Below, piece by piece: positions 8,776 to 19,128 of a DNA stretch of 39,391 nucleotides (the stretch's first letter is position 1; every line of letters starts with the position of its first letter). The notes below the pieces were generated by a model. It was not told the DNA's origin. It saw only the letters and a program-made list of their open reading frames with translations, and made no database searches. Source of the stretch: a virus (lineage: Duplodnaviria > Heunggongvirae > Uroviricota > Caudoviricetes); the IMG/VR virus record IMGVR_UViG_2778261394_000008, positions 1-39,391 of that record; one strand, written 5' to 3'. Made by a program: the position numbers and the translations under genes.

Positions 8776-9084
8776 TTACACGAAGCGGATCTGGAGTTTT
8801 TTTCCTGTTGCGCGGGCAAATTTTTTCAGTGTGGAAAATGATGGTCCACTGACACCTGACGCCAGATTACTTTCCATTCTGCTGATGACAGTTGCTTTGG
8901 TTCCCATACGCTCAGCGATCTCAGCCTGGGTTAAACCAGCTTCTTTACGTGCTGCCAGCATTTCATCAAGCAGCGCAAATTCGTCGGCGATGGCGTCGTA
9001 TTCTGCTTTAAAAGCTGGATCCTTCATCCATTTATCAGCCATTTCATCATGTGTAATGGTTAGCGGATTACGTTTACCAGTCAT
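8776..9084 (-). CDS. HTH-type antitoxin (HigA-like, XRE family)
   Basis: 102 aa; HTH (GLTQAEIAERMGTKATVISRME); immediately downstream of, and overlapping, a RelE/ParE-superfamily toxin gene. Confidence 0.8.
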   Translation of the reverse strand: MTGKRNPLTITHDEMADKWMKDPAFKAEYDAIADEFALLDEMLAARKEAGLTQAEIAERMGTKATVISRMESNLASGVSGPSFSTLKKFARATGKKLQIRFV

Positions 9085-9403
9085 GCTTTACCTCCTTCAT
9101 TCTGGTTTCAGCTTTTTGGCGTTCGGCTGGTGGGGTTTTCTGAGTCTTCTTGATGAAACTATGCAGCATGATGATGCGTTTTCCTGCCAGGGTGCAGTAA
9201 AAGACGCGTGCGATGCCATCACTACCTTTAATCCGAAGCTCGAAAAGCCCGTTACCGAAAGCACTGGTATGAGGTTCTCCGAGATTGCTGCCGTATACCT
9301 TCATGCGTTCAACAAGATGCTGGTATCGGGCACGCATACTCAATGGAAGCTGGTCGACCTCCAGCCTGACCTCTTCACTGTAGTATTCGATAGTGTAGTT
9401 CAT
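9074..9403 (-). CDS. RelE/ParE-superfamily toxin (HigB-like / phage Gp49-like)
   Basis: 109 aa; toxin gene precedes the antitoxin (HigBA order); overlaps the antitoxin start by 11 nt. Confidence 0.8.
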   Translation of the reverse strand: MNYTIEYYSEEVRLEVDQLPLSMRARYQHLVERMKVYGSNLGEPHTSAFGNGLFELRIKGSDGIARVFYCTLAGKRIIMLHSFIKKTQKTPPAERQKAETRMKEVKHDW

Positions 9404-9433: not shown

Positions 9434-10087
9434 GCACAATATATTGATTCTGCAATTTCGGGACGTTACACTGTTCCAGCACCTTATAAAGCGGGTGCCG
9501 GGCGTGGAAACCCGAAATTCAATATAGAGCACAACCGCGCTCATGCGGTTTTTTCGTGTCATGAGCATTGCTACGCCCAAATTATGGTGGGGCGTGCAGG
9601 GCCAACTTCGGTTGGGCCGGGTTCTATGTTGACCGGTATTTCCACCCCTGTACGTCTCACCACCTATATGGTCGTGGAAAGCCTTGGTGGTGAGTTCTTT
9701 GAATTCAACATAGGGGCTGTCACCATGACTACCACCACTACCCACCCATTCCTCAAAATTGAGATTATTAACGGTAAGACCGTTATTTTCTCTTTGCATG
9801 TAGCCTGCCATTTCAAGCGCATGCACCAGAACATCGTCGACAAAATCGAGTATCTGAACTGCTCACGCGAGTTTTTTACCCGCAATTTCATACCGGGTAC
9901 TTATCACATCTATGGTGACTCCCTGCGTGGTTATTACATCACCCTTGATGGCCTGATGATGCTTCAGCTTGGGTTAAGTCTGCGCACAATGCGGTACTAC
10001 GAGAGCTGCATTGAAGCATTCCATGAAACTGAAGCCAGTCTCAGTCACACCGCTTTCCGCCGTAATCAATGGGAGGTGCGCCCATGA
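9422..10087 (+). CDS. Hypothetical protein (221 aa; start uncertain)
   Basis: 3' portion of the 507-aa track ORF that does not overlap the antisense TA genes; codon usage looks coding; stop overlaps the start of the next ORF (ATGA at 10084-10087) with GGGAGGTG SD. Confidence 0.4.
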   Translation: MVMFAQYIDSAISGRYTVPAPYKAGAGRGNPKFNIEHNRAHAVFSCHEHCYAQIMVGRAGPTSVGPGSMLTGISTPVRLTTYMVVESLGGEFFEFNIGAVTMTTTTTHPFLKIEIINGKTVIFSLHVACHFKRMHQNIVDKIEYLNCSREFFTRNFIPGTYHIYGDSLRGYYITLDGLMMLQLGLSLRTMRYYESCIEAFHETEASLSHTAFRRNQWEVRP

Positions 10088-12120: not shown

Positions 12121-13508
12121 CAACACCAGTCTGGCGTAACGATGACCTGGAAGGCGCTGTCATTGGCGCGTTCTTTCTGCGTGGGGCAGATCCTGAAGTG
12201 ATGGATATTCTGGCCACACTACCTGCGGACGTTTTTTCTGTACGAGCGTATCGGGATATCTACACAGGCATCTGCAGACAGGCCCGTGTTTCAGGCGTGA
12301 TTGACCCTGTGCTGTTGTGTAATGAGATGCCGGAACTTGCCCCGGTGATTACTGATACCGGGCGCAAAACCTGGGTGAAGTCTTCACTGGAGCACTATGT
12401 TGCAGCGTTGCGGCGCAATGCCGCATTGCGCGATGCAGAAAAAACGCTGAATGAGGCGCTGCAGAAATTACGTGATGCGCATACCTGTGAAGCGGCTGAA
12501 GATGCTCTGAAGGATGCGCAGAACATGATGGCCTCATTGTCGACGGAAAAGGGCGCTATTCAGCCGGTACATATTGATGATGTGCTTCCGGAAGTGGTTG
12601 AGCGTGTTGAATGCCGGAATCAGGGACTGGAGAAATCCAGGACGTTGATGACCGGTATTGATGAACTGGACGCAAAAACAGGTGGCATGGATCCCGGCGA
12701 CCTGGTATTTATTGCGGCTCGTCCGTCAATGGGCAAAACCGAACTGGCGCTGGATATCATCGACAAGGTGACTGAGCAGGGGCATGGTGTTCTTCTGTTC
12801 ACAATGGAAATGGCGAACATCCAGATTGGTGAACGCATGGTATCTGCGGCTGGAGGAATGCCGGTATCACGCCTGAAATCTGTCACTCACTTTGAAGACG
12901 AAGATTGGGCACGTTTCTCACAAGGAGTGGGGCGGATGACCGGGCGCAATATCTGGATGGTGGACCAGGCGAACCTGACCATTGATGAGATATGCGCAAC
13001 AACGAAACATCACCTGATTAAACATCCGGAAACGGCGCTGGTGGTGGTTGATTATCTCGGGCTGATAAAAACCCGAACCACGGGGCGTCATGACCTTGCC
13101 GTGGGTGAAATCTCAAAGGGGCTTAAAGGCCTGGCAAAATCCGGTGGTTTTCCGTTGATTGCGCTGAGCCAGCTTTCCCGTGGTGTGGAGTCCAGGCCCA
13201 ATAAACGCCCTATGAACTCAGACCTGAAAAATTCCGGAGAAATAGAGGCGGATGCAGACATCATTCTGATGCTTTACAGGGATGAAGTGTACAACCCGGA
13301 TACGCAGGCCAGAGGCATTGCAGAAATCAATATCACGAAACAACGTAACGGTTCTCTGGGGACGATTTACCGGCGTTTTTATAACGGACATTTTCTGCCC
13401 GTAGACCAGGAAAGCGCACAGATTCTTTCCACCCCAATGCAGCAGCCCCAGCCGCGCAGATACAGCAATAAGCGAACCGACAGCAGTAAGATGGAGCGTT
13501 TCTTTTGA
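12117..13508 (+). CDS. DnaB-family replicative helicase
   Basis: 463 aa from ATG at 12117 (ATGA overlap with the upstream stop); Walker A ARPSMGKT, Walker B VVVDYLG; DnaB-like C-terminal RecA fold motifs. Confidence 0.9.
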   Translation: MTTPVWRNDDLEGAVIGAFFLRGADPEVMDILATLPADVFSVRAYRDIYTGICRQARVSGVIDPVLLCNEMPELAPVITDTGRKTWVKSSLEHYVAALRRNAALRDAEKTLNEALQKLRDAHTCEAAEDALKDAQNMMASLSTEKGAIQPVHIDDVLPEVVERVECRNQGLEKSRTLMTGIDELDAKTGGMDPGDLVFIAARPSMGKTELALDIIDKVTEQGHGVLLFTMEMANIQIGERMVSAAGGMPVSRLKSVTHFEDEDWARFSQGVGRMTGRNIWMVDQANLTIDEICATTKHHLIKHPETALVVVDYLGLIKTRTTGRHDLAVGEISKGLKGLAKSGGFPLIALSQLSRGVESRPNKRPMNSDLKNSGEIEADADIILMLYRDEVYNPDTQARGIAEINITKQRNGSLGTIYRRFYNGHFLPVDQESAQILSTPMQQPQPRRYSNKRTDSSKMERFF

Positions 13509-13519
13509 ACAACCAGACC

Positions 13520-13762
13520 ATGACTTTTACGCCTGAACAATTACGTAAACAGGCACAGGAAATGTTACGACAGGCGGAACAACTGGAAAAGACAGGCGTA
13601 ACAAAAGATGCCATTCGTAAGGATATGGTGCCAGCGCTCAGGGAACTGATGCAGGCGAAACACCGCGCACAAAAAGCAGTGGATGAGCTGGTGGATTGTG
13701 TGGCAGAGCTGGAAACCAAAGTTGGAAAGTTTGAAAAACTGGTGCAGGAGGTACTGCGCTGA
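13520..13762 (+). CDS. Hypothetical coiled-coil protein (80 aa)
   Basis: Charged helical ORF between the helicase gene and Q; alternative TTG start at 13505. Confidence 0.45.
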
Positions 13763-14145
13763 TGCGTGATATTCAGATGGTTCTTGAGCGTTGGGGAGCG
13801 TGGGCGGCTAATAATCATGAAGATGTGACCTGGTCGTCCGTTGCCGCCGGTTTTAAGGGATTAATTCCTTCAAAAGTAAGATCTCGTCCGCAATGCTGTG
13901 ACGATGACGCGATGATCATTTGTGGATGTATGGCCTGTCTGAAAAAGAGCAACAATGGCTTACATGATTTGCTGGTGGATTATTATGTTGGTGGGATGAC
14001 GTTTATGATGCTGGCGCGGAAGCATAATTGCTCTGATGGGTATATCGGGAAAAGGTTACAGAAAGCAGAGGGAATAATCGAAGGTATGTTAATGGCATTA
14101 GACATTTGCTTAGAGATGGATATTGATGTTACTAAGCTTAATTAA
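13762..14145 (+). CDS. Late-gene antiterminator Q (small Q family as in DLP12-type prophages, recalled similarity)
   Basis: 127 aa, Cys-rich ([15 protein letters not shown]); positioned after the replication genes and before the late region. Confidence 0.7.
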
Positions 14146-14149
14146 TACG

Positions 14150-14325
14150 ATTATTTTTTAATAAAAAATGGGGCGTAAAAACACCCCCAAGATAAAGGGT
14201 AATATATAACAGAAAGTTTAGATAGTAAGAAGCAGGGCTCTAATGCTTCTTAAAGAAGTGGCTTGAGGGAGCCACTTATATGCTGAGAAGATAAAACCTT
14301 CTCAGCATATCCTTTATTAACCAGA
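14150..14325 (-). ncRNA. Candidate IpeX-like structured RNA / terminator cluster in the porin 3' region
   Basis: Three consecutive hairpins between convergent Q and porin genes (14227-14251, 14258-14275, 14280-14308, the last with an 11-bp perfect stem); an sRNA in the nmpC 3' region is known in the DLP12 prophage. Confidence 0.3.
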
Positions 14326-15432
14326 TTAGAACTGGTATACCATACCTACAGCAACGATATCGTCAGTGTTTACACCAAGAGCTTTAGTAAAGTCATTTTT
14401 GTCAAGCAGGTTGATTTTGTAATCAACGAAGGTAGACATATTTTTGTTGAAATAATAAGTTGCGCCAACATCAACATATTTGACTAAATCCTGGTCACCA
14501 AAAATGCCAAGATCTTTACCTTTTGATTGCAGATAAGCAACAGACGGACGCAGACCGAAATCGAACTGATATTGTGCAACAGCTTCGAAGTTTTGTGCTT
14601 TATTAGCCACAAAGTAATCTGCGAATTTAGTCATATTCTGGGTTTCTGAATAGGTTGTTGCCAGATAAACGTTGTTTGCGTCGTATTTCAGACCTGCAGC
14701 CCAGACTTCTGCATTTTCGCCGGAAGCAAATACTCCTGGGAGAAGTTTACCCAATTTGACTTGAGTGTCGGTACGATCAGATTTCGCATACGTTGCACCA
14801 ATGCCGAAACCTTCGTATTCATAGGTCGCAGAGAAACCAAAACCATCGCCATTGCCTTTGGTGTAGTTATCTAAGCTACTACGATCATGATTATTCTTAC
14901 CCTGGTACTGTGCAGCAAAATTCAGACCATCAACCAGACCAAAGAAGTCGTTGTTACGATAAGTTGCAACACCAGTGGTGCGACCAGTCATGAATACATC
15001 TGTTTGGGTCCAGGTATCTCCACCGAATTCTGGCAGAACGTCAGTCCATGCACCGATATCGTATGCTACACCGTAGTTACGACCGTAATCGACGGAGCCG
15101 TAGTCACCGAATTTAAGCCCTGCAAATGCAAGACGGGTTTTATCTTTGGCTGCTCCCTGTTCTTCAGTACGGTTTCCTTTGAATTCATATTCCCACTGAC
15201 CGAAACCAGTCAGTTGATCGTTGATCTGAGTTTCGCCTTTGAAACCCAGACGAGCATAAGTTGTGTCGCCATCATTTGCATCGTTAGAGGAGAAGTAGTG
15301 CTTAGCATTAACTTTTCCGTACAGATCCAACTTGTTGCTGTCTTTATTATAAATCTCTGCTGCCTGAGCAGACATCGCCATCAGTACTGATGCAGCCACA
15401 GCAGAAATTGCCACCGTTAATTTTTTCATCAC
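14326..15432 (-). CDS. nmpC: OmpC/OmpF-family general porin (NmpC/Lc-type prophage porin)
   Basis: 368 aa; signal peptide ending [10 protein letters not shown]; porin signatures throughout and C-terminal aromatic residue (VYQF); encoded antisense to the late operon between Q and the lysis genes. Confidence 0.9.
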
Positions 15433-15938
15433 GAACCCTTTTTTTTGAACTATTTTTAAAAAATGATGTCACTGCGCGATAAATATTCATCTAATCAATG
15501 TGGTTATTTCAAGAGGCAAGTTTAATTTAGTGATTGATAATATGATCAAGATCTCATTTATGCGCGTTGGTGTAATTTGTCGATATTTTTGTGTAATGCG
15601 GAATTTAATTAATGAAATACATTATTTACTCATTTTTCATTGAAAAATAACAATGATGCATTTGGTGTAATATGTGTTATTCGCATGTTTGGTTTTGTTA
15701 TAGAGCATTAACATTTGAGTGGCGTATTTGTGGTTTACGTACGTAAAAATTCAATTATGATGTTAAGAGTGGTTGCTTCGACTCCTTCCTTAAAACCGCC
15801 GTCGGGCTGTTTTTTGTACCCGAAAAACGGCACAGGACGTTAAACGTGCTGGTGGTTACGAATACCGGTCTTTCAGCTTGCTGGCTTTTTCGACAAGAGT
15901 TATTGGTATGTCACGTTAACCGGAAAAGGGAAAAAGAC

Positions 15939-16136
15939 ATGCTAAAACAGCAGGATATGACCGAAACCGCCAGAGTGGTGTTTAATGAATTAAGCGTCAC
16001 CGAACCGGCGACCGTCGGGGAAATTGCGCAGAATACTTACCTTTCACGCGAACGCTGCCAGTTAATACTGACCCAGCTTGTTATGGCGGGTCTGGCAGAT
16101 TATCAGTTCGGTTGTTACAGACGCCTTCCTCAGTGA
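15939..16136 (+). CDS. Hypothetical small protein (65 aa), possible winged-helix fold
   Basis: Internal ATG of track ORF 15846-16136; immediately upstream of the methyltransferase gene. Confidence 0.4.
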   Translation: MLKQQDMTETARVVFNELSVTEPATVGEIAQNTYLSRERCQLILTQLVMAGLADYQFGCYRRLPQ

Positions 16137-16286
16137 AGGCTTTTTAATTTGTGGTAATGGGCGGCTGGTGGGTGTTAGCGGCACCTGCCAGCCATCTGCT
16201 CATGCGTTGGGATCACAAGCAAACCTCAGGCCCATCTGCTTTGCGCAAAAGCGGTATGAGCCTATCAGAGAAGAGCTTATTGATCT

Positions 16287-17333
16287 ATGGCTAATACTGT
16301 AAAAATATCCAGTTGTGAGTTAATCAACGCTGATTGCCTGGAATTTATCCGGACCTTACCGGAAAACTCTGTCGATCTGATAGTCACAGACCCGCCATAC
16401 TTTAAAGTGAAGCCCGAGGGCTGGGATAACCAGTGGAAGGGGGACGATGATTACCTGAAATGGCTGGCTCAGTGTCTGGCGCAGTTCTGGCGGGTACTGA
16501 AACCTGCCGGAAGTCTCTACCTGTTCTGTGGTCATCGCCTGGCATCTGATATCGAAATCATGATGCGTGAACGCTTTAATGTGCTGAACCACATTATCTG
16601 GGCGAAGCCGTCCGGACGCTGGAATGGGTGCAACAAGGAAAGCCTGCGGGCGTATTTCCCGGCAACAGAGCGCATTTTGTTTGCCGAACATTATCAGGGG
16701 CCATACCAGCCCAAAAGTGACGGTTATGCAGCAAAGGGGCGCGAGCTTAAGCAGCATGTCATGGCCCCGCTGATTTCTTACTTTCGTGATGCGCGCGAAT
16801 CACTGGGGATAACGTCAAAACAGATAGCAGAAGCCACCGGAAAGAAAAACATGGCTTCGCACTGGTTTGGTACCAGTCAGTGGCAGTTACCGAATGAGGC
16901 CGATTACAGTAAACTGCAGGCGCTGTTTGCACGTGTGGTGGCAGAAAAACACCAGCGCGGTGAACTGGAGCAGCCACACCACCAGCTGGTCAGCACATAC
17001 AGCGAACTGAACCGGCAATATGCCAGCCTGCTGGAGGAATACAAATCACTGCGGCGTTATTTTTCCGTATCGGCTGTCGTTCCTTATACGGATGTCTGGA
17101 CGCACAAGCCCGTGCAGTTTTATCCGGGTAAGCATCCCTGTGAAAAACCGGCGGATATGTTGCGTCAGATAATTACTGCCAGCAGCCGTCCAGGCGATTT
17201 GGTCGCAGATTTTTTTATGGGGTCGGGGTCGACAATAAAAGCGGCACTGTCGCTGGGATGCAGGGCGATTGGCGTGGAACTGGAAGAGGAACGTTTTAAT
17301 CAGACGGTCAGAGAAATAACGAAAGATTTTTAA
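16287..17333 (+). CDS. DNA methyltransferase, beta-class amino-MTase (N6-adenine or N4-cytosine), orphan
   Basis: 348 aa; motif IV DPPY near the N-terminus (IVTDPPYF) and motif I FxGxG near the C-terminus (FFMGSGST); no adjacent restriction endonuclease gene. Confidence 0.85.
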   Translation: MANTVKISSCELINADCLEFIRTLPENSVDLIVTDPPYFKVKPEGWDNQWKGDDDYLKWLAQCLAQFWRVLKPAGSLYLFCGHRLASDIEIMMRERFNVLNHIIWAKPSGRWNGCNKESLRAYFPATERILFAEHYQGPYQPKSDGYAAKGRELKQHVMAPLISYFRDARESLGITSKQIAEATGKKNMASHWFGTSQWQLPNEADYSKLQALFARVVAEKHQRGELEQPHHQLVSTYSELNRQYASLLEEYKSLRRYFSVSAVVPYTDVWTHKPVQFYPGKHPCEKPADMLRQIITASSRPGDLVADFFMGSGSTIKAALSLGCRAIGVELEEERFNQTVREITKDF

Positions 17334-17441
17334 TTCAGTGATGATATAAGTTGTATATTTCTGATACAGATGTATACACATATTTAAAACTGAACACCAA
17401 ATATATTTTTGATGCCCACACAATCATTGTTAGTATTTGTG

Positions 17442-17468
17442 ACGACCTAAAGGTGGTCGTTTTGTGTT
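17442..17468 (+). terminator. Hairpin with interrupted U-tract downstream of the methyltransferase
   Basis: Stem acgacc/ggtcgt, 6-nt loop, followed by tttgtgtt. Confidence 0.4.
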
Positions 17469-17890
17469 CACAGGGTGTTAATACCACCGGAAAGGTCAGT
17501 GCTGACTTCCTGGTGATCAGTTTGTTGATTCAGTAATAACCGGTCAGCAGTGTGATTCCGGAAGTCAGCATTTTATGTGTGAGGGTAATTTCTGCTACCC
17601 GCACTGGTAAACAAATGAGGCATATCGTTTCAGCACTGGCGAGTTTCGCGGAGAACAGGTTTTGCAAGCGCCTTTGTCGTTCTTCATTCTGTAATATCTG
17701 ACTGATTACAGTTTCGGTGCTGTTTTTTACATTGTTAACGTTGTGTATCATCGGATGGTTTTTATCAGAATGAGTCGCTGCCTGTTTCGGGGTCTGTGAT
17801 TCGTCAGAATTACGTTGCAGGCTGACGAATCATTCTGGTAGTAACCATACAATTAAACGCTGTCTAATTCTTATACGATGAATGCTTTGG

Positions 17891-17917
17891 GCCCGTCTCA
17901 TGACGGGCATTTTTTTA
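17891..17917 (+). terminator. Rho-independent terminator
   Basis: gcccgtc-tcat-gacgggc followed by attttttta. Confidence 0.7.
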
Positions 17918-18013
17918 TCCGTGCGCAATGCCTGTTCTGTTATGGCATTTTTCATCTTTTCCCGGTTGGCTATTATTATGGTTTATTTTTCTGTATACAG
18001 GAGAATTGAGACT

Positions 18014-18505
18014 GTGATCACATATGCAGACATTCGGGAAAAGCAGGCTGAAATTCAGGAGGCCAGACAGGAGTACATCCAGCGACTGCGGGATATGGCA
18101 AAAAGGCTGGTCAAGACCTATGAAGACTCACTGGCATTGCCGAAACCACGATGGCTGGATATTGACGGTAACTCCCATCCCTATGTTTATCTTTCTCATG
18201 ATAGTTGTTGTGAGAAACCGGAGGATTTGCAGGTAGATTTTCAGGATGGGGTTACTTTTAATTTATATACGGTTGTTGATGATGATCCCCGCCAGTCTGT
18301 AAGTGTGAATATTACAGTGAGTATTCTGTTACTTGATGGCGACAACATGACGATTTCGGTTGATGGTTATCAGGCCAGGACATTTTCGCATGTGGATACC
18401 AACGCAAAAATTAATGAAGTGTGCGAATACATTAAAGACAGCATACTTATGTCAATGAATGAAGTGACGTTTGGCAAAAAATCCCTTTCAGAAGTGAAAG
18501 GGTAA
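18014..18505 (+). CDS. Hypothetical protein (163 aa), moron-like unit
   Basis: GTG at 18014 preceded by AGGAGA SD (9-nt spacing); the longer track ORF from 17882 would include the terminator hairpin; bracketed by intrinsic terminators. Confidence 0.45.
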   Translation: MITYADIREKQAEIQEARQEYIQRLRDMAKRLVKTYEDSLALPKPRWLDIDGNSHPYVYLSHDSCCEKPEDLQVDFQDGVTFNLYTVVDDDPRQSVSVNITVSILLLDGDNMTISVDGYQARTFSHVDTNAKINEVCEYIKDSILMSMNEVTFGKKSLSEVKG

Positions 18506-18540
18506 ACCAGCTGACACTCCGCTGATTCAGAAAATTATCA

Positions 18541-18565
18541 GGCTGCGCACGTGCGTGGCCTTTTT
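18541..18565 (+). terminator. Rho-independent terminator
   Basis: Stem ggctgcgc/gtgcgtggcc with 4-nt loop, followed by ttttt. Confidence 0.5.
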
Positions 18566-18702
18566 CATATCTGCGCCACGCCCGGCGCACATCAAAAAAC
18601 CACAGAGCCTTTCAGGGGGGAGCTTACGGGATGGTCAGTGTGACTTTCTCTGTGGGCTGCTCATCCCGGGGCGAGGCTCACCCACTAAAAGGAAAAGTCA
18701 CG

Positions 18703-19128
18703 ATGTTTGGTATTTTCAAAAAGAAAACCCGTAAGGCTATTACTGAAGTGAAGAAAATGGAGAACCGCGACGCGGTGGAGGCGACCGTCTGGGGCGCGTA
18801 TTCCATTGCATACGCTGACGACACCTGTGACGCGAAAGAAATTGCGGTACTGGAGAAAACCATTGCAGCACTTCCTGCCTTTGCGCCGTTCTCCGGTGAG
18901 ATTGCCCAGATGAGCGCGAATATCCGCGCCCGTTATGAAGCATCGCCTCGTAGTGCGAATGCTCAGGCTTTGCGAGAACTGGCTGATGTGGCAGGAACCG
19001 CCGAAGCGGTTGATGTGCTGTGCCTGTGTCTGGATATTGCAGACCAGGATGGCATTGGTCCGGATGAAGAAGCACAGCTCAAGAAAATTGCGCAGGCGCT
19101 GCAGTTGCCGCTGGAGCAGTACCTGTGA
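18703..19128 (+). CDS. TerB-like (tellurite-resistance TerB family) protein
   Basis: 141 aa from ATG at 18703 (AGGAAA SD); overall pattern resembles TerB, with two acidic D..D/E segments (AYADDTCDAKE and DIADQDGIGPDEEAQ); assignment from recollection. Confidence 0.55.
   Translation: MFGIFKKKTRKAITEVKKMENRDAVEATVWGAYSIAYADDTCDAKEIAVLEKTIAALPAFAPFSGEIAQMSANIRARYEASPRSANAQALRELADVAGTAEAVDVLCLCLDIADQDGIGPDEEAQLKKIAQALQLPLEQYL

Follow-up and report, generated by a model that had tools for sequence, protein, structure and literature searches.

An IpeX-like 3' untranslated region behind an intact Lc/NmpC-type porin gene in a lambdoid prophage of Escherichia coli EC11

We analyzed a window of 39,391 nucleotides (nt), positions 1 to 39,391 of the IMG/VR virus record IMGVR_UViG_2778261394_000008, around a porin gene that lies on the minus strand between the antiterminator gene Q and the late genes, and whose 3' untranslated region (UTR) resembles the RNA IpeX. 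In a genome comparison, the region tested matched a segment of the EC11 chromosome of E. coli (NZ_CP027255.1) with full identity, and the window is a lambdoid prophage of that strain. Its gene order runs from replication genes and a DnaB-like helicase through a small open reading frame (ORF) to Q and then to the minus-strand porin. On the plus strand, the porin is followed by a 65-amino-acid ORF, a DNA methylase and additional cargo; holins and an endolysin come next, starting at about 19365, and then the genes for head and tail. The features of the porin unit and its flanks are summarized in Table 1.

Table 1. Features of the porin unit and its flanks, in window coordinates
Feature	Position	Strand	Basis
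Antiterminator Q gene, QuuD type, 127 amino acids, converging on the porin unit	13762-14145	+	Pfam PF06530, E = 5.5e-52
IpeX-like 3' UTR, about 166 nt, porin stop codon to terminator U-run	14160-14325	-	DLP12/PA-2 alignment; fold
Intrinsic terminator of the porin/IpeX transcript: stem-loop 14170-14188 and U-run 14160-14169	14160-14188	-	terminator scan
Unpaired linker, 37 nt, holding the proposed seed	14189-14225	-	fold; core invariant
Hairpin 3 (HP3), 9 bp	14226-14252	-	folds; one two-sided pair change, 98.8% of cells paired
Hairpin 2 (HP2), 8 bp, loop CCCUCA	14256-14277	-	folds; identical in window-type and DLP12-type alleles
Hairpin 1 (HP1), 15 bp	14278-14310	-	folds; stem replaced relative to DLP12/PA-2, pairing kept
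Porin gene, Lc/NmpC allele, 367 amino acids including a 23-residue signal peptide (15361-15429), C-terminal YQF	14326-15429	-	profile, structure and Lc comparisons
Shine-Dalgarno sequence AAGGG of the porin gene	15436-15440	-	read from the sequence
Predicted porin promoter: -35 TTGAAA (15507-15512), weak -10 (about 15483-15489, 17-18 nt downstream)	15483-15512	-	predicted; DLP12/PA-2-like stretch
CRP-like site AAATGAGATCTTGATCATATT, centered about 72 nt upstream of the predicted start	15539-15559		position of the CRP site in the PA-2 record
AT-rich spacer between the divergent promoters	15560-15733		guanine-cytosine (GC) content 0.28-0.31; not alignable with DLP12
Candidate Q-dependent late promoter: -35 TTTACG (15734-15739), -10 TATGAT (15756-15761)	15734-15761	+	promoter scan, 9/12
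Conserved late leader (GTTAAGAGTGGTT...) and tR'-like terminator remnant (15795-15816)	15762-15816	+	weakened by a 5-nt deletion

The porin gene is intact. As an ORF it spans 14326-15432 from a GTG codon, and RefSeq starts it at the ATG at 15429 and names the 367-amino-acid product "porin OmpC." The protein matches the whole Pfam Porin_1 profile (PF00267, positions 1-337 of 337, E = 8e-152), scores 530 bits against a cut-off of 484 for the NCBIfam OmpC subfamily, and matches solved OmpC and OmpK36 structures across the whole mature protein (E about 1e-136). Judging from these chain matches, it would form a trimeric 16-stranded outer-membrane beta-barrel. Lc of phage PA-2 has 94% amino acid identity to it, the ev243 and 2G7b phage porins have 89%, and the differences lie mostly in a few short stretches instead of being evenly spread. 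The first 23 residues agree at every position with the annotated Lc signal peptide (J02580), and the C-terminus reads VYQF. A porin with 100% amino acid identity is encoded by six viral contigs. The element IS5, which interrupts nmpC in K-12, is absent from the window gene.

An initial annotation of this DNA, made from the sequence alone, had described a complete antisense porin of the OmpC/OmpF family with a signal peptide, arranged as nmpC is in DLP12 and lc in PA-2. The comparisons above bear out both parts of this description, as the gene has the same layout, in opposite orientation and immediately after a QuuD-like Q. The same annotation had placed the porin between Q and the lysis genes. 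The gene does lie between Q and the late genes, but the lysis genes are not its neighbors: about 3.9 kb of other cargo (the small ORF, the DNA methylase, a 207-amino-acid ORF, and a TerB-domain protein) separates it from the holin at about 19365. As for Q itself, its identity is 87% to QuuD of DLP12 and 45% to the phiP27 Q, and a comparison with the PDB identifies it as a distant relative of the crystallized Q21 (E = 7e-8).

The sequence that follows the porin gene is homologous to ipeX. When the 180 nt between the porin and Q stop codons were aligned, they proved homologous to the quuD-nmpC spacer of DLP12, and the match to the ipeX region of PA-2 has 80% identity over 168 nt (E = 2e-32). The ipeX sequences of DLP12 and PA-2 are identical to each other. 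Identity of 80% over 168 nt indicates that the flank is homologous to these sequences, not merely similar to them in shape. The length from the stop codon to the U-run, about 166 nt, fits the 167 nt quoted for IpeX in a review (PMC12197685). The association with the porin is also consistent, as the ipeX core stands directly after the porin stop codon in 80 of 80 viral contigs with close porin relatives and in all three genome hits.

Three stable hairpins had been reported from this flank at 14227-14308 and assigned to the position at which IpeX is encoded in DLP12. We recovered all three at 14226-14310, aligned with ipeX of DLP12 and PA-2, and added a fourth that had been missed. This last hairpin, at 14170-14188, is followed by AUUUUUUAUU and constitutes an intrinsic terminator on the minus strand; the terminator scan reports it as GGGGTGTTTTTACGCCCC and then ATTTTTTATT, and all seven of its pairs are kept in each of the 18 distinct 3' UTR variants that we aligned. 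In the final 100 nt of the porin gene, neither the promoter scan at its threshold nor inspection by eye found a separate IpeX promoter. A search of Rfam with positions 13500-16500 gave no match at the gathering threshold or at E values up to 10, save two chance snoRNA-like hits; because an IpeX model is apparently absent from Rfam, this result says nothing either way.

The predicted structure is far more stable than expected by chance. The 183-nt minus-strand 3' flank folds with -60.7 kcal/mol, compared with -33.5 +/- 3.6 kcal/mol for 200 shuffled sequences, none of which was as good (z = -7.5), and the DLP12 flank gives z = -8.0. Across the 18 variants, the four helices comprise 39 pairs and therefore 702 pair cells. 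Standard pairs occupy 98.4% of these cells, a fraction that falls to 41-48% after sliding the partners by one to three columns. The window-type and common alleles differ by five two-sided compensatory pair changes, four in HP1 and one in HP3, along with two wobble changes, and no pair is broken in the window allele. These compensatory changes are good evidence that the pairing has been maintained. An exact 20-mer of the ipeX core, searched with one genome per species, occurs in only three records; all are E. coli, so there is no cross-species diversity for a covariation analysis. The most conserved part of the 3' UTR is the unpaired linker, not the stems: its 22-nt core, TCTGTTATATATTACCCTTTAT, is invariant in 18 of 18 variants.

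This linker is complementary to the leader of host ompC. Duplexes were computed between the 37-nt unpaired linker and target windows from -60 to +30; full-length IpeX against 160-nt targets had yielded end-to-end duplexes that were meaningless and no better than shuffles, and the linker was used instead. Positions 14204-14218 (AACUUUCUGUUAUAU) pair with -21 to -7 of ompC (AUAUAACAGAGGGUU) over 15 bp, two of them G-U, and cover the Shine-Dalgarno sequence, and positions 14192-14198 (CCUUUAU) pair with -29 to -23. The predicted energy is -21.9 kcal/mol for the window linker, -26.7 kcal/mol for the DLP12 linker, and -26.5 kcal/mol for the 37-nt 5' end of the small RNA MicC. None of 1000 shuffled linkers attained the window value; among shuffled targets 3 of 1000 did so, and among background 90-nt windows from the genome 9 of 5000. 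The leader of the phage porin itself shows no such complementarity to the linker, with an energy of -12.6 kcal/mol that 247 of 1000 shuffles reach. Among 5426 E. coli genomes, 5359 carry an ompC leader of at least 99% identity, and this conservation stands in for EC11's own ompC locus.

The 5' end of MicC (GUUAUAUGCCUUUAUUG) and the IpeX linker share the motifs GUUAUAU and CCUUUAU, which in IpeX are separated by AUUAC. The insertion of AUUAC also creates UAUUACCCU at 14197-14205, which is perfectly complementary over 9 nt to the Shine-Dalgarno region of ompF. In our proposal, IpeX acts through its invariant linker, which would block the Shine-Dalgarno sequence of ompC at the MicC site, a pairing mechanism that we infer from the computed duplexes. 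A more far-reaching version, to which we give somewhat less than an even chance, is that the linker is a bipartite anti-ribosome-binding-site seed copying that of MicC (GUUAUAU...CCUUUAU). Such a seed would block ompC from -29 to -7, and the UAUUACCCU made by AUUAC would be complementary to the Shine-Dalgarno sequence of ompF. Both host porins would then be silenced by a single 3' UTR, which the leader of the phage porin escapes, and IpeX would be no pairing-independent oddity. The linker may have originated from a porin leader that was copied in inverted orientation. Reviews state that IpeX represses OmpC and OmpF, that it is made as part of the porin transcript, and that its action is not explained by complementarity alone; no earlier report of linker-ompC pairing was found in a literature search that did not extend to the original IpeX study.

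We also observed a second copy of the target motif within the UTR itself. In the window allele only, the beginning of the 3' UTR (14311-14317, minus strand) reads AUAAAGG, a heptamer that also occurs in the ompC leader, and in the minimum-free-energy fold it pairs with the CCUUUAU seed half at 14192-14198. Such pairing might mask the seed within the full-length mRNA.

On the 5' side of the porin gene, the sequence from the start codon to about 15525 is nearly identical to DLP12 and PA-2, and the predicted porin promoter lies in this stretch. The CRP-like site AAATGAGATCTTGATCATATT lies farther upstream, where the PA-2 record has its CRP site, and is closer to the CRP consensus than the PA-2 site is. 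It is the sole match in the 39 kb to AATGTGA-N6-TCACATT with two or fewer mismatches, where 0.32 would be expected. Its position would be compatible with upstream (class I) activation, and with this candidate site at an orthologous position the porin may be under catabolite control. The GC content is 0.28-0.31 over 15400-15800, and about 170 nt of this 28-31% GC sequence have no counterpart in DLP12.

The AT-rich 5' flank had been expected to hold the late promoter as well as the porin promoter, and candidates for both can now be placed there: the predicted porin promoter and the CRP-like site in the part conserved with PA-2, and a late candidate at 15734-15761. Homology with relatives resumes at 15727-15816, and the late candidate reads TTTACG-16-TATGAT. 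This block is kept in DLP12, PA-2, phage 434 (isolate 434B), ev243, 2G7b, phiP27, and Stx2a_1447, whatever sits upstream of it. The TATNNT form of the -10 element and the leader are conserved across eight phage types, even where the -35 region diverges. Relatives also carry a strong hairpin, CCCGC(C)-loop-(G)GCGGG followed by a T-run, 30-50 nt downstream. Because this arrangement of promoter, leader, and terminator is conserved across differing cargo, we read it as the Q-dependent late promoter.

The terminator of the late leader varies among close relatives of the window. The window and five siblings (L008-L012) have ACCGCCGTCGGGCTGTTTTTT, in which 5 nt of the 3' arm are lost, and the window keeps a 3-bp stem and the T-run. 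A perfect CCCGCC/GGCGGG hairpin is kept in the sibling contigs L006 and L007, whose porin is 100% identical in amino acids. The loss of these 5 nt might render transcription of the first late genes partly Q-independent; the terminator scan places a second plus-strand terminator at 16123-16140, after the small ORF.

The space between Q and the late block is occupied by other cargo in relatives, namely a GIY-YIG nuclease gene in phiP27 and two unrelated minus-strand ORFs in Stx2a_1447. We call the porin a moron because other cargo lies between a related Q and the same block in these phages, and the comparison supports the view that the stretch between Q and the late promoter accepts several alternative inserts, among them the porin cassette.

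Two further observations concern the sequence of the late block. A perfect 14-bp palindrome, TTTACGTACGTAAA (15734-15747, plus strand), covers the -35 element; it is conserved in DLP12-type phages, Stx2a_1447 has the related CGCGTACGCAAAAA, and Q or another protein might bind to it. In addition, the 1980s PA-2 record lists a second "CRP site" (1067-1087 in that record, L086; 15770-15790 in the window), which falls inside the late leader. The listed sequence, CTGTGTGACGAAGTAACCACT, is the reverse complement of the leader, and its TGTGA half is not conserved in the window. This second site is probably part of the late leader rather than a CRP site.

Taking these results together, we consider it very likely that the locus is a self-contained Lc/NmpC-IpeX lysogenic-conversion cassette (moron) of a lambdoid prophage, inserted in opposite orientation with Q on one side and the late promoter on the other. 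The homology, anatomy, structural conservation, and complementarity of the cassette are observed directly. Its expression in the lysogen, the accumulation of the RNA, and the repression of OmpC and OmpF are inferred from published work on PA-2 and DLP12. In the mechanism that we propose, a probably CRP-assisted promoter (about 15483-15559) would drive a minus-strand transcript that encodes the intact general porin and would end at the intrinsic terminator at 14170-14188. The 3' UTR of about 166 nt is an IpeX variant composed of three hairpins, the 37-nt linker, and the terminator, and, either within the porin mRNA or released from it, would lower the synthesis of host OmpC and OmpF. Its linker would base-pair with positions -29 to -7 of the ompC leader, masking the Shine-Dalgarno sequence where MicC also acts, and, less convincingly, with the Shine-Dalgarno and start region of ompF. 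In the lysogen, the phage porin would replace the host porins, with permeability changed and with OmpC and OmpF removed as phage receptors.

It is important to note that several points weigh against this account. The compensatory changes essentially represent one lineage split, between the window type and the rest, and hence few independent events. The conservation of HP1 could serve termination of the Q operon on the plus strand rather than IpeX, as the terminator scan gives a plus-strand terminator-like hit at HP1 (14278-14310); the scan does not flag HP1 as a plus-strand terminator in DLP12, although a CTTTTT run comes after it there. The ompF duplex, at -16.9 kcal/mol, is at chance level and was reached by 89 of 1000 shuffled linkers and 152 of 1000 shuffled targets. 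The 2006 IpeX study by Castillo-Keller et al. is said to have found no complementarity to ompC and an effect on ompC that was independent of Hfq. The -10 element of the porin promoter is weak and falls below the threshold of the consensus promoter scan. Expression of the EC11 cassette would rest on analogy with its homologues. Finally, the prophage appears damaged, with frameshifts in terminase, portal, capsid, and tail genes and with its integrase end elsewhere in the genome, and the cassette might therefore be a relic.

This last point leads to the reading of the cassette as a silent relic, in which the porin is intact and yet unexpressed in the lysogen, like K-12 nmpC, and has no conversion phenotype. 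The frameshifted late genes, the lack of an adjacent integrase, and a weak -10 element within a 28-31% GC region typical of silenced DNA would all suit it. The precedent of K-12 is less telling, since nmpC is silent there because IS5 has inserted, and IS5 is absent from the window. The ORF, the ribosome-binding site, the promoter-proximal region, and the CRP-like site are all intact, and six viral contigs encode the identical porin; we consider a silent relic unlikely, if by no means far-fetched. A different reading accepts the porin and denies the RNA a role in trans: the hairpins would be a compound terminator or stability element between the converging Q and porin units. The last hairpin is indeed a plain intrinsic terminator, HP1 is terminator-like on the plus strand, conserved pairing is also expected of terminators and 3' stabilizers, and no RNA family model matches the hairpin cluster. 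However, HP2 and HP3 have no U-run on either strand, and it is the linker that is most conserved, not the stems. The complementarity to the ompC ribosome-binding region is also well beyond chance, and the DLP12/PA-2 homologue is reported to repress OmpC and OmpF. A role confined to termination or stability is accordingly improbable in our judgment.

A third alternative concerns the neighboring transcription unit. In the canonical lambda layout, the late promoter lies directly downstream of Q. If the prophage kept this layout, which is also described in a Q21 preprint, late transcription would run antisense through IpeX and the porin, and 15734-15816 would be something else. No sigma-dependent pause or Q-binding element was identified at 15734-15816, in a comparison made without the published Q21 element sequences; a literature search for late-leader or Q82/Q21 promoter sequences returned nothing usable, and the terminator in the block is weak in the window. 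Against a Q-adjacent promoter, the promoter scan shows no plus-strand promoter-like site in 14146-15733, and the downstream block combines a -35/-10 pair and a conserved leader with a terminator that is strong in relatives. Phages that differ in their Q-proximal cargo also have this block immediately before their late or lysis genes. We give the Q-adjacent arrangement little chance, and prefer a late promoter downstream of the porin cassette.

The allele found here is rare: a match of 95% identity or more to positions 14100-15900 occurs in only 20 of 5426 complete E. coli genomes, and about 3400 hold an 80-90% relative. Other parts of the prophage and its chromosomal setting also yielded observations. 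The potABCD operon is split in EC11: potA-potB abut the left end of the window prophage (L001, EC11 4.877 Mb), and potC-potD lie 1.15 Mb away, directly next to the integrase end of another lambdoid prophage (L096, EC11 3.727-3.775 Mb). The small terminase protein is identical between the two prophages, and several late genes that are frameshifted in the window copy are intact in the second one. The split operon and the shared terminase suggest that integration took place within pot and that a large inversion later occurred between the two prophages.

Within the window, Rfam gives matches above the gathering score to isrK (9479-9555, plus strand, 61.6 bits) and to C4 antisense RNA (9580-9667, plus strand, 82.4 bits). 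The region 9479-9667 is a P1/P7-type antisense immunity element in a lambdoid prophage, and it lies just upstream of a gene that RefSeq names "ash family protein." Also in the early region, at 8776-9337 on the minus strand, RefSeq annotates a RelE/ParE-type toxin and a helix-turn-helix partner (L001 12677-13238). Beyond the methylase gene, at 17334-19128 (plus strand), there is no tRNA in the window, at the place where phiP27 and Stx2 phages have tRNA genes and stx. This part of the window includes the 207-amino-acid ORF (17882-18505), which has no Pfam match, and the TerB-domain protein (18631-19128).

A prophage that rewires the surface of its host is a textbook case, and a further copy of such a cassette adds little by itself. 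The value of this locus lies in its rare second IpeX allele, in which the stems have changed in a compensatory manner and the linker is untouched, as it shows which parts of a poorly understood RNA are under selection. The complementarity between linker and ompC makes the mode of action of IpeX testable by mutation. The placement of the late promoter of QuuD/phiP27-type phages downstream of a variable slot should also help in the annotation of Stx prophages and their relatives.

The system itself is known, and the window is a rare, intact allele of Lc/NmpC-IpeX in a phiP27-like late region. It agrees with PA-2 lc (J02580) in orientation relative to Q, promoter-proximal sequence, place of the CRP site, ipeX architecture, and terminator. 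It differs from PA-2 in its 3' UTR, which is about 80% identical, with the HP1 stem replaced through compensatory changes and the HP3 loop 3 nt longer; one G-C pair of the ompC duplex becomes G-U, and the AT-rich region upstream is unrelated. The S and R lysis genes come directly after the late promoter in PA-2, whereas the window has a phiP27-like methylase module there. The DLP12 nmpC-ipeX locus shares the QuuD-type Q and the layout, and its ipeX is that of PA-2, but its porin gene in K-12 is interrupted by IS5 and that of the window is not.

MicC offers the closest parallel for the proposed action on ompC. Both halves of its 5' seed recur in the IpeX linker, for which pairing with that same part of the ompC leader is predicted at a similar energy. 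The two RNAs have no overall homology, however; the halves are split by AUUAC in IpeX, and its predicted pairing extends further into the Shine-Dalgarno sequence. MicC is also a free-standing gene for a chromosomal ompC-repressing small RNA, whereas IpeX resides within an mRNA 3' UTR. As for the slot, phiP27-like and Stx phages share with the window a related Q, the block of late leader and terminator, the small ORF, and a DNA methylase downstream. Those phages carry a GIY-YIG nuclease gene or two ORFs in the slot, with tRNAs and stx downstream, whereas the window carries the porin cassette and has neither tRNA nor stx.

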